A DNA stretch of 64,000 bases from an uncultured Bacilli bacterium (GTDB lineage Bacteria > Bacillota_I > Bacilli_A > RF39 > UBA660). This document shows positions 32,573 to 45,369 of the stretch, in pieces. The notes under the pieces were generated by a model. The model was not told where the DNA came from, made no database searches, and saw nothing but the letters and a program-made list of their open reading frames with translations. The stretch spans positions 2,534 through 66,533 of the forward strand of contig CANQZM010000001.1 of the NCBI GenBank assembly GCA_947628345.1. Reading direction: 5' to 3'. Within the stretch, counting starts at the first letter, position 1. Every line of letters starts with the position of its first letter. A program made the position numbers and the translations under genes.

Positions 32573-33493
32573 TTATCCCATTACTTCTCCACCATTATTG
32601 TGGATAACTTGACCTGTCATATAACTAGAATCATCTGATGCTAAAAACACAAATGTTGGAGCTAATTCACAAGGCATAGCACCTCTTGCCATCGCAGCAT
32701 TTGATCCCAATGAAGGAATCTTTTCTTTTACCCAACAAGCTGGTTGTAAAGGTGTCCAAAAAAAGCCTGGAGCTATAGCATTTACACGGATGTTTTTTAA
32801 AGCTAAATTTCTAGCTAAAGCTCTAGTAAATCCCACAATAGCCCCTTTTGTTGTAACATAATCTATTAATTGTGGATCTCCATAAAATGTAGTTACAGAA
32901 CTTAAATTGATAATTGATGCCCCTGATTTTAAATATGGTAATACCGCTTTAGTCAAATAAAACATTCCATAAACATTGACTTTCATTGTACGATCAAATT
33001 GTTCATCACTAATTGAGGCAAGTTCATCTTGCTGATATTGTACACCGGCATTATTTACTAAAATATCTATTTTTCCAAAAACATTTAAAGTAGTATCAAC
33101 AATTTGTTTACAAAATTTCTTATCCGAAATATCCCCAGACATGATGATACATTCTCCACCAAGTTTTTCAATATATTGTTTTGTATATTGTGCATCTTTA
33201 TGTTCATTATAATATGGTATTACAAGCTTAGCCCCTTCTTTAGCAAACGCAACAGCGGCAGCTCTACCTAAACCACTATCTCCTCCTGTAATAATCGCTA
33301 CCTTATTTTTAAGTTTTCCACTTCCAACATAATTAGGATTATCAAAGATAGGTAAAGGTTTCATTAAATATTCCATCCCAGGCTGAGTATTTTGGGATTG
33401 TTCTGGTGCTAGAATCTTATATTCTGTACTTCTAATTCCATTTGGATAAAAGTATTGATAATATTGATTTCCATATTGATAATCAAAATTCAT
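32573..33493 (-). CDS. SDR-family NAD(P)-dependent oxidoreductase (general stress protein 39-like)
   Basis: TGGDSGLGRA Rossmann motif, NNAG, S...Y...K catalytic triad region. Confidence 0.75.
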   Translation of the reverse strand: MNFDYQYGNQYYQYFYPNGIRSTEYKILAPEQSQNTQPGMEYLMKPLPIFDNPNYVGSGKLKNKVAIITGGDSGLGRAAAVAFAKEGAKLVIPYYNEHKDAQYTKQYIEKLGGECIIMSGDISDKKFCKQIVDTTLNVFGKIDILVNNAGVQYQQDELASISDEQFDRTMKVNVYGMFYLTKAVLPYLKSGASIINLSSVTTFYGDPQLIDYVTTKGAIVGFTRALARNLALKNIRVNAIAPGFFWTPLQPACWVKEKIPSLGSNAAMARGAMPCELAPTFVFLASDDSSYMTGQVIHNNGGEVMG

Positions 33494-33567: not shown

Positions 33568-35271
33568 TTATAAATAACAATTAACCTGGTAATAAACTGT
33601 ATATCTTTTTGTACCTTTAGTATCATATCCTCTTTTAAACTCATAAGTATTTTTTAAATAAGAACATAATAATGGCTTTTTATAACTTTCTCTGTAAGAT
33701 AAAAAGATATCTAATCTTACTATATTATTATCATTATTAATCTTAGAAACTTTTATATAATTAAGTATCAAACTAATTATTTTATTTATCGTAGATTGAG
33801 AATTAACCTTTAACTTTACAATATCTTCAAATTCTTTAGTTATATTGTCTACTTTGTCTATCTTTTTCTGTGAATTTTTAAGTATATTAATCTCTTTAGT
33901 AAGTTTATTTATGTTATCATTAAACATATTATTTTTTATCATAAACTCATCATTAGATAAACTACCTTGAATATTAAGTTCTAATATTTTATCTTTTTTT
34001 ATATAAAGTTTGTCTAACTCTTTTTTTCTGGTAATAATTTCTTCTTTAAGTTCTTTATCTATTTCTACGCATTTATAACAATTTATAAGAACATCAATAA
34101 TCTTATCAGAATTAATTGATAATTTTTCAATTAAATTTTTAAAAATATAATCTAATTCTGATTCCCTAATATTAGGTGAATCACAAGTAGTTTTACCATT
34201 TTTAAGATACTCTCCACAAACCCATGTTATATCATCTCTACTTTTTCTAAACTTTCTTCTATAAAAGGCTGTATTATGATCTTTACAATAAATTTTAGCA
34301 CTATATAAATATCTATTTGTATAAATCTCTTTATCTTGATTCCGACACTTAAAAGCCTTTTTTCTTGAAATTAACCGTTTATTAGCTCTTTCCCATAAAT
34401 CTTCTGAAACTATTGGAGGAATTTTAACTTTATCTTCTTGGATAATCCAATTATCCTTTTCAAAATATTTTATTTTCTTAGTCATATAATCTACTACTTC
34501 CGACTTTCTTGCACAATAGTAACCCTTATACTTAGGATTTTCAATCATTCTAGAAATTGTTGAAACATACCACTTATGACCTTGATGATTTTTGTTGCTT
34601 TCACTATTTAAAATTTTTACAATTTTAGAAAGAGATAATTCTTCTATGGCATAGTATTCATATATTTGCTTAATTAAACTAGCTTCATCTGGAATAATAT
34701 TTAAAAAACCCGTGTTCTTATCTTTTTTATAACCATAAAGTAAATTATTTCCAAGTATTTCTCTACGTTCTATAGCCCTATTCATTCCAAATCTAACACG
34801 TTCTGATAAACGTCTAATCTCATCTTGAGCCATGGAAGCCATTATAGTAAGTCGAAGTTCAGAATCAGGCATAGCTGTATTTATATTATCATTTACAAAT
34901 AACACAGCTACACCATATGACAAAAGTTCCCTAGTATATTTAATACTATCAAGAGTATTTCTAGAAAATCTAGAAATTTCTTTTGTAATAATCAAATCAA
35001 AATTACCCTGTCTAGCATCTTCAATCATCTTCATAAAATTATCTCTTTTTATATCACTAGTACCAGTTATTCCATCATCTACATATCCTGTTATATAAGT
35101 CCATTGAGGATTTTTCTTTATATACTCCTCAAAATGTTCTACTTGATTTTGTAGAGATTTTTTTTGTTCATGAGAATCAGTTGATACTCTGGCATAATCA
35201 GTAACTTTAAGCTTTATATTAGTAAGTGATATTCCCATATTAAGTTTTTTTCTAACATCATACAAATCCAA
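33568..35271 (-). CDS. Large serine recombinase (resolvase N-terminal domain, recombinase domain, zinc ribbon, coiled coil)
   Basis: YARVSTDSHEQKKSLQNQ catalytic Ser region, recombinase domain, Cys cluster CKDH...C; TTG start preceded by AGGAGG. Confidence 0.8.
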   Translation of the reverse strand: MDLYDVRKKLNMGISLTNIKLKVTDYARVSTDSHEQKKSLQNQVEHFEEYIKKNPQWTYITGYVDDGITGTSDIKRDNFMKMIEDARQGNFDLIITKEISRFSRNTLDSIKYTRELLSYGVAVLFVNDNINTAMPDSELRLTIMASMAQDEIRRLSERVRFGMNRAIERREILGNNLLYGYKKDKNTGFLNIIPDEASLIKQIYEYYAIEELSLSKIVKILNSESNKNHQGHKWYVSTISRMIENPKYKGYYCARKSEVVDYMTKKIKYFEKDNWIIQEDKVKIPPIVSEDLWERANKRLISRKKAFKCRNQDKEIYTNRYLYSAKIYCKDHNTAFYRRKFRKSRDDITWVCGEYLKNGKTTCDSPNIRESELDYIFKNLIEKLSINSDKIIDVLINCYKCVEIDKELKEEIITRKKELDKLYIKKDKILELNIQGSLSNDEFMIKNNMFNDNINKLTKEINILKNSQKKIDKVDNITKEFEDIVKLKVNSQSTINKIISLILNYIKVSKINNDNNIVRLDIFLSYRESYKKPLLCSYLKNTYEFKRGYDTKGTKRYTVYYQVNCYL

Positions 35272-35283
35272 ATTATATCCTCC

Positions 35284-35452
35284 TAATATTATTGAATTCT
35301 TTTAAGATATGTTCTTCTGTATATTTGAACATTTTATATGATATTTTTTGTTCATCAAATAATTGTTTATTTAAAAAAAGAGCTACTTCTAATATTATTT
35401 CTGTATTCTTATTTTTTACTTCTACAATTTTAGTAAAATCATTAAAATTCAT
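35284..35452 (-). CDS. Small protein (about 56 aa) immediately upstream of the serine recombinase, possible recombination directionality factor
   Basis: Strong RBS GAGGAG before ATG at 35452; translationally coupled to the recombinase. Confidence 0.35.
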
Positions 35453-35543
35453 GTAAATTCTCCTCTATTTTAAATTATGAAATAAGTAAGAAAATAATAC
35501 TTTAAGAAAAAATTTAACATTGCAAACATTTTTCTAAAAAAAA

Positions 35544-35578
35544 GAGTCTAATGAATTTTTTTCACTTCATTAGAACTC
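35544..35578 (-). terminator. Hairpin GAGTCTAATGAA/TTCATTAGAACTC downstream of the 35601..36305 gene
   Basis: Read directly. Confidence 0.4.
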
Positions 35579-35600
35579 ATTTAATTTATATTATTTAAGA

Positions 35601-36305
35601 TTATCTTGACTTTGCCCCATCGTTACCATATTGTGTACTATATTTATAAGATTTTTCAATAAAGCCAATTAAATTTTCAATTTCTTCACCAAATTGCGGT
35701 CCTTCATAAAAACTTCCGTCTTTATGTTCATTTACTGTTTGTTTTCCTACTTGTGCACTATACAAATCATACATTTCTTTTAACTCATCATATTCAACTG
35801 TATTATCATATTGGAAGTCAGGGTTTGTTCTTCTTTCTTGCCAAATATAAAACGGAATACTTACACTCTTACAAAGAATTTTCTTTTTTATTTCAGACAT
35901 ATCGCCCTTTGGATCATGGTATTCTGCTATTCCAGTACGATAGCCTATTTCTTGCCACATATTGTATAGTTCCGGAATATCTTGTAATACTTTTGCTATT
36001 CCCGAACCTCTTAAATTAATCATTTCCTTTAATTCATCATGTGCTTTCTTTACATGTTCATCAAACTTAAAAATTTCAAAATGTGTATATAAAGAGTTTG
36101 TTCCATTATCATTTTTCTTTTCTGGATAACCATTTTCCTGATAATACTGATTCTTGTATGATAATAACTTTCCTAATTCTACTTCACAATCCATTATTTC
36201 ATAAAAATTAGGATCTGTATTTGGATTACTTCTTATCCAATCATTAATGCCTTTCATTCTTTCTGATAATTTGTCTGCCATAACATCAAGTGTTTGTTTT
36301 TCCAT
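35601..36305 (-). CDS. Hypothetical protein (234 aa)
   Basis: ORF only. Confidence 0.4.
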   Translation of the reverse strand: MEKQTLDVMADKLSERMKGINDWIRSNPNTDPNFYEIMDCEVELGKLLSYKNQYYQENGYPEKKNDNGTNSLYTHFEIFKFDEHVKKAHDELKEMINLRGSGIAKVLQDIPELYNMWQEIGYRTGIAEYHDPKGDMSEIKKKILCKSVSIPFYIWQERRTNPDFQYDNTVEYDELKEMYDLYSAQVGKQTVNEHKDGSFYEGPQFGEEIENLIGFIEKSYKYSTQYGNDGAKSR

Positions 36306-36399
36306 AAAACTTAAAGCCTCCTGTCAATAATATTTAACTGTATTATACTATTTAATTTTTTTTTGTCAAATTTATGCTTTACAAATTGTGATTATCAAG

Positions 36400-36700
36400 C
36401 GAAAATTTCCCAACTATTATTGTGAATAACTTGACCTGTCATATAACTAGAATCATCTTCATAAAATTATCTCTTTTTACATCACTAGTACCAGTTATTC
36501 CATCATCTACATATTCTATTATATAAGTCCATTAGGGATTTTTCTTTATATTCTCCTAATGTTATTGAATTCTTTTAAGATATGTTCTTCTGTATATTTG
36601 AACATTTTATATGATATTTTTTGTTCATCAAATAGTTGTTTGTTTAAAAAAGCTACTTATAATACTATTTCTGTATCATTAAATTTTATATTTTCATCTT
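36400..36700. repeat. Degenerate, internally deleted second copy of the right end of the upstream island: SDR 3' end, recombinase 5' end and recombinase upstream region
   Basis: 36405-36455 matches 32590-32640; 36456-36560 matches 35028-35130; 36562-36690 matches 35287-35415; all near-identical by eye. Confidence 0.6.
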
Positions 36701-36806
36701 TCATAATATTTCTCATCATGAAGTCCCCTTTAATTAACATTATGAAATTTAAAATAAAACAACACTAATAAAAAACAGTACCTACCCTATAAAGTACTGT
36801 TTATTT

Positions 36807-38117
36807 TTATCGTTTTCTTGTATTAGAATCATTAATTAATCTATCTAACTGTTCGTTATTAATATATATTACTCTACCTCCAGCAGGATTAATTATACGA
36901 TTGCCAAACACTACCCATATTGCATCCATTGGTGTATTTGGCATACTAGCTGCTCCATCTGTGAAAATCACTTTGTTTTCTACACGTTTAGAAAATGCAT
37001 TTATTGCGACTTCAAAGTTAGTACCTCCACCACCAGAAAAAGATAAATTATCAATATCTGTTATATTTTTAATTTCTGAAAAACCATAAAATTTTGTATC
37101 AAAACAGCCTACTTTTACTTTAGATACACTTAAAATATTTTTACATTCTCTTAAAAAATTTCTAAGGAGCGTTTTATTAATAGAACCACTAGTATCTAAA
37201 AGTATTTCTGTTTCTGGATTTGGTAATTCTTCTAAATGTGCGGTTAAAACTCCATCTTCTATACTAGCATTTTGGTATGACCAATCAACATCATATTTAA
37301 TAGCCTCCTTCAATAACTTGCGCCAGTCTAAAAGAGGATTTGCTATACCGATATCACTAATAGTTATTTTGTCACTATTTGTTTTATTCCCATAGCCATG
37401 TGATTCATTTACTAAAGATTCTCTAAGTTCTTCTAATCGTTTTTTGTATTCTATTCGATTTTGTTGATATCCTTCCCTTTCTCCTAATTCAGTAAGTTTG
37501 TTAATAATTTCTTTTTTCTGCTTACTTAATGAATCGTTCATAGGTTCATTATTTTGGGAATTTTTATCATAAGCTTTGGACCATAGTTCGTGAGTGTCAT
37601 GCCCAACTTTATTTATCTCTTTTTGTACTTTAGATTGTCCAGTAGAATTTGACTTTGTTTCAGAATTATTTTGATTATTTGATTGTTCTTGATTGTCTGT
37701 TTGATTACTAGTATTTTCTTTTTGTTCTTTCTTTTCTTGTAAAAGTTTTTGATAAAGCTCCTCGACATCATAGTTTCCGGCATAAGGAATATCAATTGCA
37801 CCTTTAATTAGTGGTAATCCATCTTTTTTTAAATTAGCATTTAATACTCCATCAGCAGCCATATTCCATATTTCAGGATCTTTATCTTTGCACCTTTCGA
37901 TATGATTATAACCTATATGCCCAAGTTCATGAGCAAATACAAATATTTGTTCATCAGCAGTAAGATTTTTTAAAAATTCTGGATTATAGTAAATATTATC
38001 ACCATCAGTTGCAGCCGTTTCAATTGATTTATCAGAAATAAAGCAAGTGTTAGCTATGATACTTCCAAATGGTGAATATTTTACTAATAATCTTCGTTTA
38101 ATATAATCTATATCCAT
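36807..38117 (-). CDS. DUF2201-type protein: N-terminal putative zinc metallopeptidase (HExxH) plus C-terminal VWA domain
   Basis: FAHELGHIGYNH HExxH motif; MIDAS-like DTSGS in the C-terminal half; usual partner of AAA_5 MoxR ATPases. Confidence 0.7.
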   Translation of the reverse strand: MDIDYIKRRLLVKYSPFGSIIANTCFISDKSIETAATDGDNIYYNPEFLKNLTADEQIFVFAHELGHIGYNHIERCKDKDPEIWNMAADGVLNANLKKDGLPLIKGAIDIPYAGNYDVEELYQKLLQEKKEQKENTSNQTDNQEQSNNQNNSETKSNSTGQSKVQKEINKVGHDTHELWSKAYDKNSQNNEPMNDSLSKQKKEIINKLTELGEREGYQQNRIEYKKRLEELRESLVNESHGYGNKTNSDKITISDIGIANPLLDWRKLLKEAIKYDVDWSYQNASIEDGVLTAHLEELPNPETEILLDTSGSINKTLLRNFLRECKNILSVSKVKVGCFDTKFYGFSEIKNITDIDNLSFSGGGGTNFEVAINAFSKRVENKVIFTDGAASMPNTPMDAIWVVFGNRIINPAGGRVIYINNEQLDRLINDSNTRKR

Positions 38118-38125
38118 ATCTAATG

Positions 38126-38527
38126 TTAAATTTGTACAAGCAAAGAATATACTTCATCATTTATTTTTCTAGTATTTAAATCTAAGCAAGTAACAATCAC
38201 TAAACAATTTTTAGGTAATTCAAATGTAGCTATTTTCTTATATTTAAGTATTTCAATAAATTTTACTTGTTCATCTTCATCTACTTCATTTATATTATCA
38301 ATAATCAAAATAGTATAACTTTCTTTACTTTTGTCAATTAACTCTTTATACCAAGTTGGAGGACAAAAAGTCGTTTCTTCATAATGTCCATTTAACTCTT
38401 TTTTATCTATGTTAGCTTTTAGTATTATTGAATTTTCAAAAGCCACAGAAGGTACACCTGGTATAAGTAAATTGCAACCACCCATTTCAATATATTTTTC
38501 TAATAAATCCAATCTTTCTTGACTCAT
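38126..38527 (-). CDS. Hypothetical protein (133 aa) between the MoxR-like ATPase and the VWA/peptidase gene
   Basis: ORF only; overlaps the upstream gene by 4 bp (operon). Confidence 0.4.
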   Translation of the reverse strand: MSQERLDLLEKYIEMGGCNLLIPGVPSVAFENSIILKANIDKKELNGHYEETTFCPPTWYKELIDKSKESYTILIIDNINEVDEDEQVKFIEILKYKKIATFELPKNCLVIVTCLDLNTRKINDEVYSLLVQI

Positions 38528-40128
38528 TTTTTTATACCTCCTTGTGATAAATTATCAGCCATTTGTAATTCACTCAAATATTCTAATCTGCTTTCATCAC
38601 CATGAGTCCACATAGATTCAAAGGCTGCTTTTGGTTCTGCTCCGACCCGTTTCATAAAATCCCGTACTACTGAAAAGTTTTTATCATCAACTGAAGATAA
38701 TCCAACAGCTGTTGCAAATTTTTGAGCTGTATCCATTTCAAAATCTTCATCTGAATAATTATGGTTTAGCACATCTTCAACACTTATTACGTATTGACTT
38801 GTAAACCAAATAAAATCAGATGTTAAATCCTCTCCAATTAAAGCCCGTAACATTTCTGGTTGTTTGGTTTTATATAGTATTTTAGAAGCCAATTCCCATT
38901 TACGGGGATCTGCATTAGGTTTTTTACCAGTAAATGGTGTTCTTAATACATCTTCTCCACTATATGATTTATAAGCTATATATGCATAAATAGATGGATG
39001 AATTTTAGCATTTGGTTTTTCTACATCATAATTTAATCTTTCATAATTTTCTTCTGGAGTAGTCGCCCATTTTAACCAACTATTAACAGTTGTATTAATA
39101 TAAACATGAGCAAATCTATTATATAAAGGTTCTGCCAATTGATTGGCTGCTAAAGAATCCTCTAGATCATTTCCAGCCGCTACTATTCTAGCATTAGGTG
39201 GTAGTTTCCATATACCATTAATTTCTTTATCTAAAACTATATTAAAGGCCATTCCTTGAATTGAAGGAAGTGCGTTGGTAAGTTCGTCAAAAAATACAAT
39301 GTGAATTTTATCCGGTTCTTTTTCACATTTTTCTTTTATTTTAGAATACCAAGTAGGTGGTATATCAATCATTTCCCCTGTTGTAGCATTATATACACTT
39401 TTGCCATTTAAACTATCTGGAGTAGCATTTCTCATATATATAATTTCGCATTCTGGATCAAATTGTTTTACTCTTGCTGACTTACCATCACCAGATTTAC
39501 CATGCAAAAATATAGGAACAGAACTTTCTAAAGCACCTCTAATAATCTCTTCTTCTGTTACACGACTAAAATCAAAGCCATAAGGATTCCTTTGCCTTTT
39601 TGATTTAGTATTATTTAGGTTGTCTAATTGATCTAAATTCCTACTGGTAGGAATTATTTCCTTTGAAAAAAAAGTATCCGTATATTTATTTATATCTGTT
39701 TTACTAAAATCACCACGATAATTATTATCATTTTGAAATTGAACACCTGCAAAAAGAATATATTTAGCAAGAGCTACATCTTTTACTTTATCAACTAACC
39801 ATATAATAGGTTCAACCTTAATCCAATATGGTTGACCTACAATTATTGTTGTACCATTAGATAGTTGGTCTCCTGCACTATTAGTATCTGCAGTAAAACG
39901 AATATACTTACTACCATTATATACGTATTCTAAAAATTCACGTTTTTTAAATTGTTCATTATAACTATCATATGCTACTGAATCAGTTGTATATTTTTTT
40001 CCTGTGATTTTTGAATCTAAAATACCATTATTATAAGCTTGTTCTAATATATCTTGCTTAGATTGTTCTTCAACCCACTGAGGGAATTCTCCATATTGTA
40101 CTTCAAGAATTCCTTGGCGACCTCTCAC
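38524..40128 (-). CDS. MoxR-like AAA+ ATPase (AAA_5) with about 200-aa unknown N-terminal domain; no own ATG start for about 230 codons; in frame with the DGR VR ORF upstream
   Basis: Walker A FLHGKSGDGKSARV, Walker B IVFFDEL, sensor AAGN. The ORF is open in frame upstream to the TAA at 40207-40209 within the VR. Only a GTG without RBS at 40128. Confidence 0.7.
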   Translation of the reverse strand: MRGRQGILEVQYGEFPQWVEEQSKQDILEQAYNNGILDSKITGKKYTTDSVAYDSYNEQFKKREFLEYVYNGSKYIRFTADTNSAGDQLSNGTTIIVGQPYWIKVEPIIWLVDKVKDVALAKYILFAGVQFQNDNNYRGDFSKTDINKYTDTFFSKEIIPTSRNLDQLDNLNNTKSKRQRNPYGFDFSRVTEEEIIRGALESSVPIFLHGKSGDGKSARVKQFDPECEIIYMRNATPDSLNGKSVYNATTGEMIDIPPTWYSKIKEKCEKEPDKIHIVFFDELTNALPSIQGMAFNIVLDKEINGIWKLPPNARIVAAGNDLEDSLAANQLAEPLYNRFAHVYINTTVNSWLKWATTPEENYERLNYDVEKPNAKIHPSIYAYIAYKSYSGEDVLRTPFTGKKPNADPRKWELASKILYKTKQPEMLRALIGEDLTSDFIWFTSQYVISVEDVLNHNYSDEDFEMDTAQKFATAVGLSSVDDKNFSVVRDFMKRVGAEPKAAFESMWTHGDESRLEYLSELQMADNLSQGGIKK

Positions 40129-40169
40129 TTCGTTCGAGGCGATTTTAGAGATTAAAGAGTAAGGTATAG

Positions 40170-40243
40170 CTGGGCGAGCTCCAACATTACGTCCATTAAC
40201 ATCGCTTTAGTCCCTATCACCATTATCATCAACCGCGCGCGCG
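40170..40243 (-). other. DGR variable repeat (VR), 74 bp
   Basis: Identical to 41747..41820 except 8 positions, all of which are adenines in the other copy on the minus (sense) strand (7 A to G, 1 A to T). Differences fall on positions 1 and 2 of AAY codons in one frame. Confidence 0.85.
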
Positions 40244-40455
40244 TATCCGCTATCCGGTGTTTTCGTCCACCAAGCTCCTGTTCTGTCTTTTAAATTATTT
40301 CCTTCATTAGTATAACATGTTGATGATACATACCCACCAAGTAATATAGAAAAATCTGTTATAGCACATTTAGTTCCATATTTTTTAAACATGTCTAATC
40401 GATTTTCACTAAATATTTGATCATTCTCTAAGAATGTAAAGTTACTCATATACAT
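40207..40455 (-). CDS. Small ORF (about 80 aa) whose 3' end carries the first half of the VR; ends at a TAA inside the VR; likely the N-terminal part of a DGR target fused or read through into the MoxR-like ATPase
   Basis: MSNFTF...LLGGYVSST...GAWWTKTPDSGYARAVDDNGDRD*; RBS GGTGA before ATG 40455. Same frame as 38524..40128, separated only by a TAA that is also present in the TR. Confidence 0.5.
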   Translation of the reverse strand: MYMSNFTFLENDQIFSENRLDMFKKYGTKCAITDFSILLGGYVSSTCYTNEGNNLKDRTGAWWTKTPDSGYARAVDDNGDRD

Positions 40456-40499
40456 CACCAATTATATAATAACATACTTTTAATTTGTATAAATAAATT

Positions 40500-41567
40500 T
40501 TAAATTTCCTTTACAAAAATTATGTCAAGTTTAAACTTGATACTTTCATGAGTTATTTTTATGTGATTATAAAAAGCATTTTTTCTTTGAAATATATATT
40601 CTTCATCAACTATTCCTTTATTATATAACTTATTTAATGTTTTTATATGTTTTTTCATTCGTTGTTTTGATGATGCTCGCAATTTTACTATGATTTTCCC
40701 AGTATTACTTAAAATATGCCTATAGCCCAAAAAATCTATACCATTTTTTAGTTCACCTATTTGTGTTTTTTCATTAAGTTTCAAATCTAAAAATTGCTGA
40801 CAAAATGATTCTATTTCTTGCTTACATTTAACTAAATAACCCTTATCTCTATGAATTAAAATCATGTCATCCATATAACGTACATAATATTTTATTTTTA
40901 ATTGCTCCTTTATAAAATGATCTAACTTATTTAAATAGAATAAAGCAAACCATTGACTCGATTGATTACCAAGTGGTAAACCTCTAGTTGCATTATCTGG
41001 CTGTTCTTTAATTATTTTTCTGATTATCCACATTTCATCATCAGAAAAATTTATCTTTTCTAACATTCTTAGTAATATATCATGATTTATACTAGGAAAA
41101 TATTTTCTAATATCACACTTTAAAAAATATATTTTATTGTTTTGATTCTTAAAATATTCTGTTCTTAAAAATTTATGTAGTCTTTTTATTGCAAAAGTTG
41201 TACCTTTTTCTTTTCGGCAAGCACAGTTATCATATATTAATCTTTTATCTATTTTAGATTTTAAACACACATCACAAAAGCATCTAATTACCACTCTATC
41301 TTTAAAAGGTAAGGCTTCTATTAATCGTTGTTTTGGCTCATAAATGTAAAATTTTTTATATTTGCCCAATTTATATTTTTTAGTAGTTAATTCTTTAATT
41401 AAAATATTTAAATTAATTGCTAAATTGGACTCAAATCTAATGACTTCACCCTTGTGTTGTTTAGACTTTCTACAATTTTTATATGCATCATATAAATTTT
41501 CAAAAGTAAAAATTTCATCTAAAGTCATACTTACCTCCAAAAAATAAACACTCCTTATAACGCCCAA
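40500..41567 (-). CDS. Diversity-generating retroelement reverse transcriptase
   Basis: RT motifs: FYIYEPKQRLIEALPFKDRVV, FLKCDIRKYFPSI, DGR-specific motif 4 LGNQSSQ ((I/L/V)GxxxSQ), catalytic YVRYMDD, thumb FLGYR. Flanked by TR and VR. Confidence 0.85.
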   Translation of the reverse strand: MGVIRSVYFLEVSMTLDEIFTFENLYDAYKNCRKSKQHKGEVIRFESNLAINLNILIKELTTKKYKLGKYKKFYIYEPKQRLIEALPFKDRVVIRCFCDVCLKSKIDKRLIYDNCACRKEKGTTFAIKRLHKFLRTEYFKNQNNKIYFLKCDIRKYFPSINHDILLRMLEKINFSDDEMWIIRKIIKEQPDNATRGLPLGNQSSQWFALFYLNKLDHFIKEQLKIKYYVRYMDDMILIHRDKGYLVKCKQEIESFCQQFLDLKLNEKTQIGELKNGIDFLGYRHILSNTGKIIVKLRASSKQRMKKHIKTLNKLYNKGIVDEEYIFQRKNAFYNHIKITHESIKFKLDIIFVKEI

Positions 41568-41746
41568 AGAGTTATTAAACTCATTGTTTGTGTGAGTGTT
41601 TTAATTCTTCCACCGCACTAAGTATAAACTTTTAGCGGTTAGAAAAGAAGAAAATTCCTTCACCTTACAATACTGATATATCTTATATAAAATATATTTC
41701 TCTGATCTGTTTTCTGAATCTATAAAAAATTCCTTCAAAAGTGAAT

Positions 41747-41820
41747 CTGGGCGAGCTCCAACATTACGTTTATTAACATTGTTTTAGTTCCTATTACCAT
41801 TATTATCTACCGCGCGCGCG
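41747..41820 (-). other. DGR template repeat (TR), 74 bp, about 180 bp upstream of the RT gene
   Basis: See VR: carries A at all 8 mismatched positions; AAY-rich in the VR coding frame; begins with (CG)5 and ends with GGAGCTCGCCCAG in sense orientation. Confidence 0.85.
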
Positions 41821-41895
41821 ACCAAAAGCCACGAAAAAACACAACGCTCTAAAAATAAATTTTCTTCTTAATTAAAGGCCTTTCAACCTAAAATC

Positions 41896-42480
41896 CTAAT
41901 TCTTTTTTTTCCATCTATTATCATCACTTTTTTTCCAGGCAACAATTAAGTTAATTACTTCTGCTAATTGCATTGATATCTGCTTATATTGTTTTAATAA
42001 AATGCACCCACAACTTTGCGCTAACATTGCTATATAGCCCAATAATTTTAATTTAACAATTGCCTCTTTTTGATAACTTTCTCTTTTTAATTTATTTGCA
42101 GAAGAATCCATTCTAATAAAATTTGTTTCTAGTAAATTTTCGATTGTATCTAAACAGTAGTTTTGCATTCTATTAACAAATACTCCTCTAAATTTTTTAG
42201 GTGATTTTTCTGTTACTGTAATTACATAGGAGCATAATTTTTTAGCTACTGTAATAACAACCAATTCATTGGCATTATAAGGTATTTTCTCGATTGTTTT
42301 TAAATCTTGATCATCTGCCTCTACTCTTTCTTTTACCCTTTTTTCATAAAACTTTGAATTTTCCGCCATAGCTATTCCCTTTTTTATTGCTATAACATCA
42401 TCTATACTATTTGCTTTTTTAGTAACAACATTAATTTCTTTAGGAATTTTTAAATTCTTTGCTCTACTAACTTGTTCCAT
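41896..42480 (-). CDS. avd: Avd-like accessory variability determinant (four-helix-bundle, 23S rRNA IVS protein family) with N-terminal extension
   Basis: Position immediately upstream of TR-RT (canonical avd-TR-RT order). C-terminal ~120 aa resemble Avd helices (IPKKFRG..., LKLLGYIAMLA...). Confidence 0.55.
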   Translation of the reverse strand: MEQVSRAKNLKIPKEINVVTKKANSIDDVIAIKKGIAMAENSKFYEKRVKERVEADDQDLKTIEKIPYNANELVVITVAKKLCSYVITVTEKSPKKFRGVFVNRMQNYCLDTIENLLETNFIRMDSSANKLKRESYQKEAIVKLKLLGYIAMLAQSCGCILLKQYKQISMQLAEVINLIVAWKKSDDNRWKKKN

Positions 42481-42602
42481 GATACCACAGCCTTATTTAT
42501 AATTAATATTAACAAGCAAGTCACTATCATTATAACAGAAAAAATACAACTTTATTTAAAGTTTACATATTTTATAATTATTAGAAAGACATCTTTGTAT
42601 TT

Positions 42603-43672
42603 AAAAACAAGCTTAACGGCTTGTTTCCTAAATTGAAATTTCAACCGCACCACTAGGTGCGGCTTTTTGATACAATAAAGGAGCCAATCCCGGCAAGGAG
42701 GCTCCTATATGAATTATAAACAATTAACTAAAGAAAAGAAAGCACAAATTGATATTTTACTTGAACAAGGACTATCTATGAGAAAAACAGCTGAAATATT
42801 AGGAATATGTCATTCTACTATCTCTAGATATAAAGCTAATATTTATAAGAAAAGAAAAATAGATATTCATGAAAAGTATGATATTTTTATGCATTATCTA
42901 TATACACACTATGATTATAAAACTTGTTCTATTGAAGTTTGTGTTCATAAATTTAAAAAGACTCATTTAAATGCTAAAAGTCCATCTGTTAAACAAGTAT
43001 ATAATTGGATAAATGAAGGTAAAATTAAACTTAATAAAAAAGATTTATGTTATAAAAAACGAAGAGGAAAGAAAACATCAATGATGAATCATACAAAATG
43101 GAACATAGATCACAAAACTGTACTTCCAATAAGCTTAAGACCTAAATATATCAATAAAAGAGATGAATTAGGACATTTAGAAATAGATTCTATTTTAGGT
43201 AAAAGAAATGAATATGATTCAGTTATTTCTATAGTAGATAGATGTTCAAGAAAAGTATGGTTAATAAAGTCTGAATACAAAAATGAATACTATACAGATA
43301 AAATTATATATGAATATATAATAAGAAACGAAATAAAAGTAAAATCCATTACTGTAGATAATGGATTAGAGTTTCAAGCTTTAGGATTAACAGCTAAAAA
43401 GCTTGGAGTAAAACTATATAAATGTGATCCATACTGTTCCTTTCAAAGAGGAACCAATGAAAGGACCAATGCTTTAGTAAGAAGATTTATTCCAAAAGGA
43501 AATTCTATGAAGAATGTAACACAGTATTATCTAGATAATATTAGTTTTGAAATAAACAGTATGCCACGTAAATTATTTGACTATAAATGTGCTTATGATA
43601 TAGAATTAAAATATAAATAAAATGGTGCGGTTGAAATTACAATAAAGAAAAACAAGCTTAACGGCTTGTTTT
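42603..43672 (+). mobile_element. IS30-family insertion sequence (about 1.07 kb). Ends carry inverted repeats ...AATTTCAACCGCACC/GGTGCGGTTGAAATT... and identical 24-bp hairpin elements AAAAACAAGCTTAACGGCTTGTTT
   Basis: Single DDE transposase ORF with flanking repeats read directly; exact termini uncertain. Confidence 0.6.
42709..43620 (+). CDS. IS30-family transposase
   Basis: N-terminal HTH (LSMRKTAEILGICHSTISRY), DDE region, 303 aa. Confidence 0.75.
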   Translation: MNYKQLTKEKKAQIDILLEQGLSMRKTAEILGICHSTISRYKANIYKKRKIDIHEKYDIFMHYLYTHYDYKTCSIEVCVHKFKKTHLNAKSPSVKQVYNWINEGKIKLNKKDLCYKKRRGKKTSMMNHTKWNIDHKTVLPISLRPKYINKRDELGHLEIDSILGKRNEYDSVISIVDRCSRKVWLIKSEYKNEYYTDKIIYEYIIRNEIKVKSITVDNGLEFQALGLTAKKLGVKLYKCDPYCSFQRGTNERTNALVRRFIPKGNSMKNVTQYYLDNISFEINSMPRKLFDYKCAYDIELKYK

Positions 43673-43677
43673 ATAAA

Positions 43678-44433
43678 CTATTTTATAATAGATTCTAATG
43701 CCAGAGTAATCATATCATTTAGGCTTTTTTCTCGTTCTTCGCCACTTAAAACTTTTTTACTATATTTTGAATCTACTGCAGTCAAAATACAAGCTGCTTC
43801 TTTTTCAAAATGATTTGCTATATGAAATAAACCAAATGCTTCCATTTCCTCTGCTACTACATCTAAGTCTTTAGGGATTCTATTTAATACTCTATCATAG
43901 TCAATATATGGACCAAATACATCCATAGTAGTTATATCTCCAACATGAAGTTTATAATTTAATTCTTCTGCTGTTTCCATAATAGTATTATTTAAAGAAT
44001 TTGAAGGATAAGTAACATGCCCTTCATAATTATCAAATGTATAAGCAAAATTTGACTCTGAATAAGATCTATTTGCTAAAATAAGATCAGGCACATTTAT
44101 AGTTGGTTTTAATGCTCCACATGTACCTATTCTGATAATTTTTTCAACGTCAAAGTAATGAAATAACTCAAAAGCATAAATACCCATACTTGGCATTCCC
44201 ATTCCTGATGCCATAACAGTTATTCTAACCCCTTTATAAAATCCTGTATAACCTAACATATTTCTCAAATTGGCAACATTCTTATTATCTATTGTAAAAT
44301 TTTCTACTATTGCATCATCTAAGAAAGTTTCTGCAATATATTTAGCTCTTAATGGATCTCCTGGCATTAATACAAGTGGAGCTATATCACCTTCTTTTGC
44401 ATTAATATGGATTGGTTCTTCTCCTATAAACAT
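43678..44433 (-). CDS. deoD: Purine nucleoside phosphorylase, DeoD-type
   Basis: Near-identical N-terminal segment to E. coli DeoD (VLMPGDPLRAKYIAETFLDDA...GMGMPS). Confidence 0.85.
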   Translation of the reverse strand: MFIGEEPIHINAKEGDIAPLVLMPGDPLRAKYIAETFLDDAIVENFTIDNKNVANLRNMLGYTGFYKGVRITVMASGMGMPSMGIYAFELFHYFDVEKIIRIGTCGALKPTINVPDLILANRSYSESNFAYTFDNYEGHVTYPSNSLNNTIMETAEELNYKLHVGDITTMDVFGPYIDYDRVLNRIPKDLDVVAEEMEAFGLFHIANHFEKEAACILTAVDSKYSKKVLSGEEREKSLNDMITLALESIIK

Positions 44434-44557
44434 AATTATCGCCTCCTAATTATAATTTTAACAAACTTTTTTAAGTTATAATATATTTTTAATTGATTAT
44501 ATACATTATTAGACACTTTTTTAGTAATATTAGAAACTTCTTATTGTTGCATTAAGA

Positions 44558-44962
44558 GAACCTAATGCTACAGAAGTAGAACAACAAGGATATGGGCATG
44601 TCGTAGCTAGTGTTGGTTCTTTAGGTGGTGTAGTTCCATATACATCTTATTCTGCAAGAATCAGCTATTTAAATAATCATAAAGAATTAATCTCTAATTT
44701 CGATAAAGCTATTCAAAAAGGATTAGATTATGTTAAAAATCATTCAGATAAAGAAGTAGCAAAAACTATTCTAAAACAATTCCCAGATACATCTTTAAAT
44801 GATTTAACTAGTGCAGTTAAAAGATATAGAGAAAATGATACTTGGCCTGATACAACAAAATTCAGTGAAGAATCATTTAATCATTTACAAGATATAATGA
44901 TTGATAGTGGTGACTTAACAAAAAAAGTTGATTATAGTAAGTTGATCTATAATGAAGAATAA
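44558..44962 (+). pseudogene. 3' portion of the interrupted NMT1/SsuA-type ABC substrate-binding protein gene (continues ...PNATEVEQQGYGHVVASVG...)
   Basis: Open frame begins right after an in-frame TAG at 44531. Stop overlaps the ATG of the downstream ABC ATPase (ATGAAGAATAA). Confidence 0.7.
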
Positions 44963-45369
44963 AATTTTAAGTATTCAGCATTTGAAAAAAAGCTATCATG
45001 ATAAGAAAAGTGAAATTAAAGCTTTAGAAGATATAACATTTGATGTTTATGATAAAGAATTTATTTCAATAGTAGGACCAAGTGGATGTGGAAAGTCAAC
45101 AATACTTTCCATTCTTTCTATGTTAGAAAAAAAATCTGGGGGAATGTTCCATTTAAAAGATAATATTACTATCGGTTACATGTTACAACAAGATTCCCTA
45201 TTCTTTTGGAGAACTATTTTAGATAATTGTTTAATTGGTTTAGAAGTAACTAATAAGTTAAATGAAGAAAGTAAACAATATGTATTAGATTTACTAAAAA
45301 CTTATGGATTATATGAATTTAAAGATAAATATCCATCTAGTTTATCTGGAGGTATGAGACAAAGAGTTG
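44952..45369 (+). pseudogene. 5' part of ABC transporter ATP-binding protein (Walker A through LSGGMRQRV), truncated by a 10.4 kb insertion
   Basis: GPSGCGKST Walker A, Q-loop, ends LSGGMRQRVE*; Walker B and H-loop continue at 55771. Confidence 0.8.
45360..45369. repeat. Left copy of 10-bp direct repeat CAAAGAGTTG flanking the 10.4 kb island
   Basis: Identical 10-mer at 55761..55770. Joining the flanks reconstitutes ...GGMRQRVALIRTLAIKPD... Confidence 0.7.

Follow-up and report, generated by a model that had tools for sequence, protein, structure and literature searches.

Diversity-generating retroelements (DGRs) are known to be attached to MoxR-vWA (VMAP/iSTAND) ternary conflict systems, in which the retroelement lies beside a MoxR-type AAA+ ATPase and a vWA protein, a peptidase is part of the system and the variable domain has been proposed to act as a cytoplasmic sensor (Kaur et al. 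2020, PMC7159879; Dore et al. 2024, PMC10907252). Here, we describe a DGR with similar companions in a stretch of 64,000 nucleotides from an uncultured Bacilli bacterium (contig CANQZM010000001.1), hereafter called the window. Its target gene encodes a putative sensor fused to an AAA+ ATPase, and its template repeat (TR) contains an in-frame stop codon. The DGR probably rewrites the variable repeat (VR) of this sensor-ATPase gene in such a way that homing leaves the gene either open or closed. Judged by its sequence, the locus is a genuine DGR, chromosomal, with a single target, in a low-GC gut Bacilli-type host.

In the MoxR-vWA ternary systems, the VR is part of an FGS/C-lectin domain at the C-terminus, in most cases that of the vWA protein, the peptidase is a trypsin or caspase on the VMAP protein, the hosts are multicellular cyanobacteria or gammaproteobacteria, and TR stop codons have not been reported. 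In the window, by contrast, the VR lies in an N-terminal DUF6273-like region on the ATPase, a Zn-metallopeptidase is carried by the vWA protein, and the host belongs to the unicellular low-GC gut Bacilli. With its VR at the N-terminus of the ATPase, a vWA protein devoid of a VR and a 133-aa protein that matches no family in Pfam, NCBIfam or PADLOC, the cassette falls outside the VMAP ternary family in its current definition.

VRs at the end of DUF6273 are found in tentaclins, where they are N-terminal (PMC10743442), and in Faecalibacterium prophage targets (PMC11792537). The position of the VR at the C-terminal end of a DUF6273 element is shared with the target described here, but the known proteins are phage structural or adhesion proteins that continue into Ig domains, whereas the present one is a cellular protein that continues into an AAA+ ATPase and matches only the C-terminal half of DUF6273, within a larger domain of 268 aa. 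AAA ATPases bearing a fused C-lectin domain are among the DGR targets of CPR and DPANN organisms (summarised in PMC10907252 and PMC5758913). They likewise combine a hypervariable domain and an AAA-type NTPase in one polypeptide, although with a C-terminal VR and hence the reverse domain order, and their reverse transcriptase (RT) clade and hosts differ. A MoxR AAA+ protein with an adjacent vWA partner is also the hallmark of NorQ-NorD, RavA-ViaA and CbbQ-CbbO, among which NorQ is the best structural match to the ATPase studied here; these pairs, however, are maturation chaperones without a variable domain, a DGR or a peptidase domain on the vWA protein.

Only three N-terminal VRs were reported by Wu et al. 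(PMC5758913), and loci with premature stops have been discarded in surveys (PMC5758913). ATPases and stop codons go unmentioned in Roux et al. (PMC8144416). The textbook rule of DGR design, restated in a Bacteroides study (10.1101/2024.11.15.621889), is that AAY template codons diversify but never give a stop. No account of TR-encoded stop codons, of DGR-driven ON/OFF alleles or of a VR on the ATPase was found in the literature searched. The initial annotation of the window, made from the sequence alone, had taken the whole arrangement to be undescribed; this holds for the TR stop and for the VR on the ATPase, but the link between DGRs and MoxR-vWA systems and the N-terminal DUF6273 VR domains are already published.

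Contingency loci undergo phase variation by repeat slippage or DNA inversion. By analogy, the locus in the window resembles them in having a hypermutable site whose heritable, in principle reversible ON and OFF alleles coexist in natural populations, and differs from them in that the switch would be a retroelement-templated nonsense codon, each switch being coupled to a change in binding specificity.

A templated stop codon within the target gene

The TR and VR of the window, each 74 nt long, differ at eight positions, all of which are TR adenines. When the adenines are masked, the TR pattern matches the 64 kb twice, at the TR and the VR themselves, with no match expected by chance, and this masked-pattern scan detected no second TR or VR in the window. 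An 80-codon open reading frame (ORF) starting at ATG 40449 ends at a TAA within the VR (Table 1). The same frame then remains open for 26 codons up to a GTG at 40128 and for a further 534 codons to 38524. The earlier description of a VR lying in frame near the 5′ end of a composite ATPase frame, interrupted by a TAA that is present in both repeats, is correct in its coordinates, and the TAA of the TR stands in the same register as that of the VR. Within the N-terminal domain, the VR sits where the DUF6273-like part ends. As also noted initially, the ATPase ORF lacks an early ATG, the first one in frame being codon 232; its first 120 codons contain no in-frame ATG, GTG or TTG besides GTG 40128, and no Shine-Dalgarno-like sequence was found upstream of this GTG.

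With the composite protein as query, 2,648 homologues were retrieved; the 120 best cover ~100% of the query and are mostly 640-690 aa long, with a few of ~900 aa. One of them, P0001, is uninterrupted and 98% identical to the composite frame over 640 aa. The column of the alignment that holds the window's stop is mostly Trp, otherwise Cys or Tyr. As the homologues, more than 2,600 in number, are proteins of about 645 aa without interruption, the fusion of VR module and ATPase is, on this comparison, the normal gene, as the initial annotation had inferred. It had named the comparison of orthologues as a test, and these proved to be single proteins of about 640-645 aa with no independent start for the ATPase. 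The 90%-identity cluster of P0001 comprises five full-length proteins together with several pieces, either 80-aa N-terminal or 533/534-aa ATPase-only.

Open and closed alleles in natural populations

The DNA of ten contigs from the P0001 cluster was compared with the window, to which they are 98-99.5% identical outside the VR. Their TR, where covered (e.g. L079, L082, L083, L087), is identical to that of the window, with a G-to-A in L086 as the sole exception. At the templated codon, closed (OFF) alleles carry TAA (the window, L083/L084 and L085), TAG (L082) or TGA (L080/L081), and open (ON) alleles carry TGT for Cys (L078), TAT for Tyr (L079 and L087), TTC for Phe (L086) or a Ser codon (P0128). 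All alleles at this codon are T-N-N, as adenine mutagenesis predicts. Over eight alleles, 79 VR substitutions lie at TR adenines against five elsewhere, of which four affect a single polymorphic G. Adenines are substituted at a mean rate of 0.40, which gives an expected stop probability of 0.55 in the absence of selection; the observed OFF fraction (5 of 10 distinct alleles) is close to this value. With at least ten distinct VR alleles across samples and one constant TR, diversification of the VR is ongoing in natural populations. The toggling of the target by homing, proposed in the initial annotation, agrees with these ten alleles of a single TR, and the TAA, whose possible invariance had been put forward as a counter-test, is replaced by other T-N-N codons in other samples.

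Coexistence of ON and OFF at one hypermutable site was seen between samples in three species. The reference metagenome-assembled genomes L007 and L017 both have a VR with TGA at a templated stop codon. In the species of L007, a mouse-gut Bacilli bacterium with a TAA as well as a TGA in its TR, an ATPase-only ORF of 536 aa occurs on dozens of contigs, and ten contigs have distinct VRs, with the first site reading TAG, TGA or TAA or the second reading TGA; in two haplotypes, the VR has single-nucleotide deletions. Among the cluster members listed, 43 of 59 contigs of this species are OFF against ~0.82 expected, contigs not being independent samples. ON alleles in the species of L008 have only Trp or Cys at the TGA-templated codon, and Tyr, Ser, Leu, Phe, Cys or, once, Val at the TAA-templated codon, and OFF alleles are marked by short products of 90, 569 and 603 aa. 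Open and closed alleles are thus met in natural populations exactly at the templated stop codons. Counts of ON and OFF from protein clusters are biased, as OFF alleles collapse to one ATPase-only sequence and each ON allele is unique, and were used qualitatively.

Other routes to loss were also observed. One-nucleotide VR indels, at TR adenine positions or runs, are present in L047 (7226-7290), L073 (7240-7300), L170, L174 and L176 and shift the frame of the target, which suggests that the RT also generates indels. In L169 (2290-2520), avd and the upstream flank of the TR are joined to a mutated repeat followed by the downstream flank of the VR, a TR × VR recombination that deleted the RT and the first ~68 target codons; L014 (6337-7210) is probably a further deletion of this kind. 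Judging by these junctions, such a deletion is an irreversible OFF and the death of the DGR.

Template-encoded stops in related retroelements

Related loci were taken from genomes (77 loci) and, with the RT as query, from metagenomes (80 loci), and their TR/VR pairs were located by script; false or mis-framed pairs of the automatic finder (L020, L066, L068, L142 and L156) were left out. Among the DGRs that target the sensor-ATPase family, about 9 of 19 distinct TRs contain an in-frame stop, the stops lying at three codon positions. At the position of the conserved Trp, the stop is TAA in the window, L009 and L017 and TGA in L007 and L008, and other related TRs have TGG or TAT there. Two codons past a conserved Val, TAA is found in L004, L007, L008, L013 and L047, the TR of L009 having AAA at this second site; one codon past the Val, TAA is found in L065. 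Two lineages (L007 and L008) therefore have two TR stops each. In a neighbour-joining tree of the RTs, built without support values, the TAA-bearing TRs fall on separate branches and are interleaved with those bearing TGG and TGA. The same scan applied to a control of ~33 classical DGRs (target-avd-TR-RT, with C-lectin VRs) found no stop inside the mutagenised core; three of them have a stop solely in the codon aligned first, on the border of the TR-VR homology. The rule that a DGR template never gives stops is thus broken repeatedly in the sensor-ATPase clade.

At the site two codons past the Val, the T of the templated TAA is itself changed in L004 (VR AGA) and L013 (VR CCG), and the same codon encodes Gly in P0082, Ala in P0198 and Val in P0179. 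A non-adenine change is unusually frequent at this single site; either point mutations have perhaps rescued stop alleles, or the TR may recently have changed from AAA to TAA.

Proposed mechanism and alternative explanations

The allele series supports a mechanism in which retrohoming switches the fusion open or closed while altering the neighbouring residues. Each mutagenic retrohoming event would write T-N-N at the templated codon, leaving the gene open where the outcome is Phe, Leu, Ser, Tyr, Cys or Trp and closing it where the outcome is TAA, TAG or TGA, as expected in roughly half of events. The VR of the window would have kept TAA, making it a current null allele, split into ORFs of 80 and 534 aa, which the next homing event could reopen. 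OFF alleles would be true nulls, since one folded domain includes the first 80 residues and translation has no credible point of restart; with the stop of the ATPase gene overlapping the start codon that follows, the OFF state may also lower expression of the downstream genes. By analogy with the MoxR-vWA conflict systems, we infer that the N-terminal domain is a diversified ligand sensor controlling the AAA+/VWA-metallopeptidase pair, which would transduce or execute the response to the ligand.

Other accounts of the interrupted frame fare poorly. Gene callers split the locus into two (P0121, 534 aa, and P0123, 82 aa), yet it is scarcely credible that it comprises separate genes for an 80-aa VR protein and for an ATPase with its own GTG start, given the thousands of uninterrupted orthologues, the folding of residues 1-268 as one domain (pTM 0.88) and the absence of both a Shine-Dalgarno sequence before the GTG and an ATG for 231 codons. 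It is also highly improbable that the stop is an artefact, that is, a chimeric consensus of mixed VRs, or that it is read through or recoded. Populations do contain heterogeneous VRs, and assemblers of metagenomes can fuse variants, yet at least five distinct VR haplotypes from independent samples have a stop at this codon and, in a second species, dozens of contigs have stops at templated codons. Readthrough is countered by the role of TAA as the main genuine stop of this genome, where it terminates 33 of 42 long ORFs. There was no sign of recoding at the VR stop, as an Rfam scan of 35000-45000 gave no family at gathering score and no hairpin downstream of the VR stood out from shuffled controls (z 0.84). 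The genetic code is standard: Trp is always TGG, and about 1,450-1,500 conserved codons in four species include no in-frame TGA or TAA. An alternative code with TGA or TAA as sense is ruled out by this absence and by TAA being the dominant terminator. Finally, the interruption of the window copy and an IS30 element upstream of avd might point to a decaying pseudogene of a dead DGR, with the TAA as its terminal inactivation. This is improbable, for the sole lesion is the TR-templated codon, every TR-VR mismatch is at an adenine, the RT, avd, TR and remaining 560 target codons are intact in this OFF strain, and the same TR is accompanied by open alleles in sister strains. The recently inactivated target that the initial annotation had considered as its own alternative is set aside on the same grounds.

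Whether the switch has a purpose is a separate matter. The mechanics could be as described and serve none, an account to which we give a little less than an even chance: the untranslated TR, in a genome of 26% GC, would have drifted from TGG through TGA to TAA, and from AAA to TAA at another site, OFF alleles being tolerated because the cassette is usually dispensable, and the stop being a by-product. In keeping with drift, related TRs show every one-step neighbour at the Trp position (TGG, TGA, TAA and TAT) as well as the AAA of L009 at the second site, the OFF frequency is near the no-selection expectation in two species, and irreversible losses through TR × VR deletion and indels occur too. 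Drift fits less well with stops being kept in ~9 distinct TRs, at three codon positions and on separate RT branches, twice over in two lineages, with the ~33 classical DGRs having none inside the mutagenised core, and with OFF strains having an RT, an avd and a 1.9-kb ORF that are otherwise intact. It is possible, if rather doubtful, that the TR stops are a selected feature that combines a specificity generator with a bet-hedging phase switch. Homing would then either arm the cell with a new cytoplasmic sensor variant, coupled to the AAA+/VWA-protease module, or disarm it. The cost of self-reactive variants would thereby be limited, and the system would be a retroelement analogue of allelic ON/OFF in an innate-immune-like receptor. 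This raises the testable question of whether a DGR can act as an ON/OFF switch plus diversifier, useful for a potentially self-reactive intracellular sensor, and, if TR stops are selected, pipelines that discard DGR targets with premature stops have removed a functional class.

Several points weigh against a DGR-driven switch in a sensor-ATPase. The distinct alleles number just 10 and were taken from assemblies, some of 2-5x coverage, and the ON/OFF heterogeneity is one between assembled samples rather than among reads of one population or lineage. In the species of L008, the members listed are mostly ON against ~80% OFF expected, which hints at selection against OFF alleles there, although cluster listings contain too few of the OFF alleles. 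The IS30 element might affect expression of the DGR in the window strain. On the protein side, the ATPase scores 17.8 bits with Pfam AAA_5, below the cut-off of 22, and none of the defence-system models in PADLOC match the cassette proteins, their role being assigned by analogy.

Organization of the retroelement

The avd gene, TR, RT gene and target gene lie on the minus strand in that order (Table 1). The avd product matches Pfam bAvd (E 1e-5) and NCBIfam DivGenRetAVD (E 4e-8), both under the curated cut-offs; its size and position are as expected of Avd, and each of the related DGR loci likewise has the gene ahead of the TR. The RT ORF encodes 355 aa from a TTG, and an ATG at 41528 is the likely start, giving 342 aa, the length called on sister contigs. 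LGNQSSQ and YMDD, which we take to be DGR-typical RT motifs, can be read in its translation. The flank 3′ of the TR has the form GAT TCA/TTG CTT TTG AAG in 15 of 15 related DGRs aligned and is putatively the IMH*/priming region.

Table 1. Features of the DGR locus and its cassette (positions in the window)
Feature	Position	Strand	Basis or remark
avd (accessory variability determinant), 194 aa	41896..42480	-	bAvd and DivGenRetAVD matches, position
Template repeat (TR), 74 nt	41747..41820	-	Alignment to VR
In-frame TAA codon of TR (AAC TAA AAC)	41784..41786	-	Aligns with the family's conserved Trp position
Conserved flank 3′ of TR (ATTCACTTTTGAAGGAA...)	41725..41746	-	TR-VR homology ends here
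DGR reverse transcriptase	40500..41567	-	Pfam RVT_1, E 8e-18
5′ piece of target gene, 80 codons + TAA	40207..40449	-	Equals residues 1-80 of orthologue P0001
Variable repeat (VR), 74 nt, target codons 70-94	40170..40243	-	Varies between samples at TR-adenine positions
TAA inside VR (current OFF state)	40207..40209	-	Other codons here in other samples
N-terminal 268-residue domain with VR, putative ligand-binding sensor	39646..40449	-	
MoxR/NorQ-like AAA+ ATPase module, helical C-terminal region	38524..39582	-	Fold match, Walker motifs
133-aa protein, ATG overlapping ATPase stop (ATGA)	38126..38527	-	Conserved position
DUF2201 protein, N-terminal HExxH metallopeptidase and C-terminal VWA	36807..38117	-	Pfam, motifs

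In two sister strains with ON alleles (L079:1922-2653 and L087:767-1507), the RT ORF is called short, at 243 and 246 aa, and L087 differs from the window across about 35-70 nt within the RT gene; some strains may have a damaged RT. The IS30-family element occupies 42627-43647 (transposase ORF 42709-43620, + strand), 146 bp upstream of avd, and ~24 nt are duplicated at its junctions. It is missing in the sister strains L079 and L086, where a purine nucleoside phosphorylase gene abuts avd.

The target protein and its three-gene cassette

The N-terminal domain, which the initial annotation had likened to CLec/DUF1566 targets, resembles DUF6273 instead and has no solved structural relative. The window protein itself gives no match to DUF6273 (PF19789) at E up to 1. 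Among its homologues, 13 of 23 match (best E 4.5e-6), only some of them above the 23.5-bit cut-off, and the matches cover profile positions ~103-169 of 172, the C-terminal half. In the AlphaFold2 model of the orthologue (pLDDT 80), the N-terminal region is predicted with confidence and an AAA+ module can be recognised. Compared with the Protein Data Bank (PDB) by Foldseek, the full-length model is closest to NorQ in the NorQD complex (9qhg_E, E 6e-8, probability 1.0), with MCM proteins next, and Walker A (GKSGDGKS) and Walker B (FFDE) motifs can be read in the translation. The initial assignment to the MoxR-like AAA_5 group thus stands on the predicted fold and not on the Pfam score. A PDB sequence search with the family profile gave no match, and no NCBIfam model matched the ATPase fusion or the 133-aa protein. 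The target is probably cytoplasmic, because it has no hydrophobic N-terminus.

The downstream genes are as first annotated, a 133-aa ORF followed by a DUF2201 protein with HExxH and VWA parts, and ORF calls and Pfam bear this out. The 133-aa protein belongs to no family in Pfam, NCBIfam or PADLOC, and its gene directly follows the ATPase gene in almost all of the 77 genome loci. The DUF2201 protein matches DUF2201_N (E 2e-30) and the VWA-like DUF2201 (E 2e-12), with HExxH and DTSGS motifs in its translation, and its gene is the third of the cassette, two genes downstream of the ATPase gene in all complete loci. A marginal PADLOC/NCBIfam match of this protein to ZorA (E 0.005) was disregarded.

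The three-gene cassette is present in essentially all 77 loci, ~23 of which have avd-TR-RT upstream; many of those without it have tandem paralogues instead. The family of the N-terminal domain comprises 2,795 clusters at 50% identity. A single relative was found in IMG/VR versus 147 in genome contigs; the cassette is almost entirely cellular, and a phage origin was rejected. A large uncharacterised cassette of gut Bacilli and their relatives is thereby defined, whose variable end points to a function in recognition.

Two to four tandem sensor-ATPase paralogues, without or beside a DGR, were observed in L060, L063, L065, L053, L068 and L074, the four paralogues of L065 having identical N-terminal segments of 261 nt. 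Such arrays suggest an alternative route to diversity. The N-terminal domain is duplicated ahead of the ATPase in P0002, P0003, P0089, P0111 and P0117 (about 890-936 aa) and in P0221-P0223, and in P0229 it is tripled. The avd-TR-RT-target layout recurs in a divergent clade (L097:931-5697) whose RT is 58% identical; the target there, of 768 aa, combines an N-terminal WYWLRSAYS...GCARPAL VR with an AAA+ module and is followed by a 127-aa homologue of the 133-aa protein. No TR stops were found in this clade.

Just downstream of the DUF2201 gene, the segment 36407-36651, together with 32585-32636, 35000-35129 and 35273-35378, forms a mosaic of degenerate copies (88-96% identity) of the 3′ end of an SDR gene, the 5′ part of a serine recombinase gene and a 59-aa gene. 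The mosaic looks like the footprint of a serine-recombinase element. L048, L051 and L067 also contain serine recombinase homologues, 3-5 kb downstream of the cassette, and in L040 homology of this kind is found on its upstream side.

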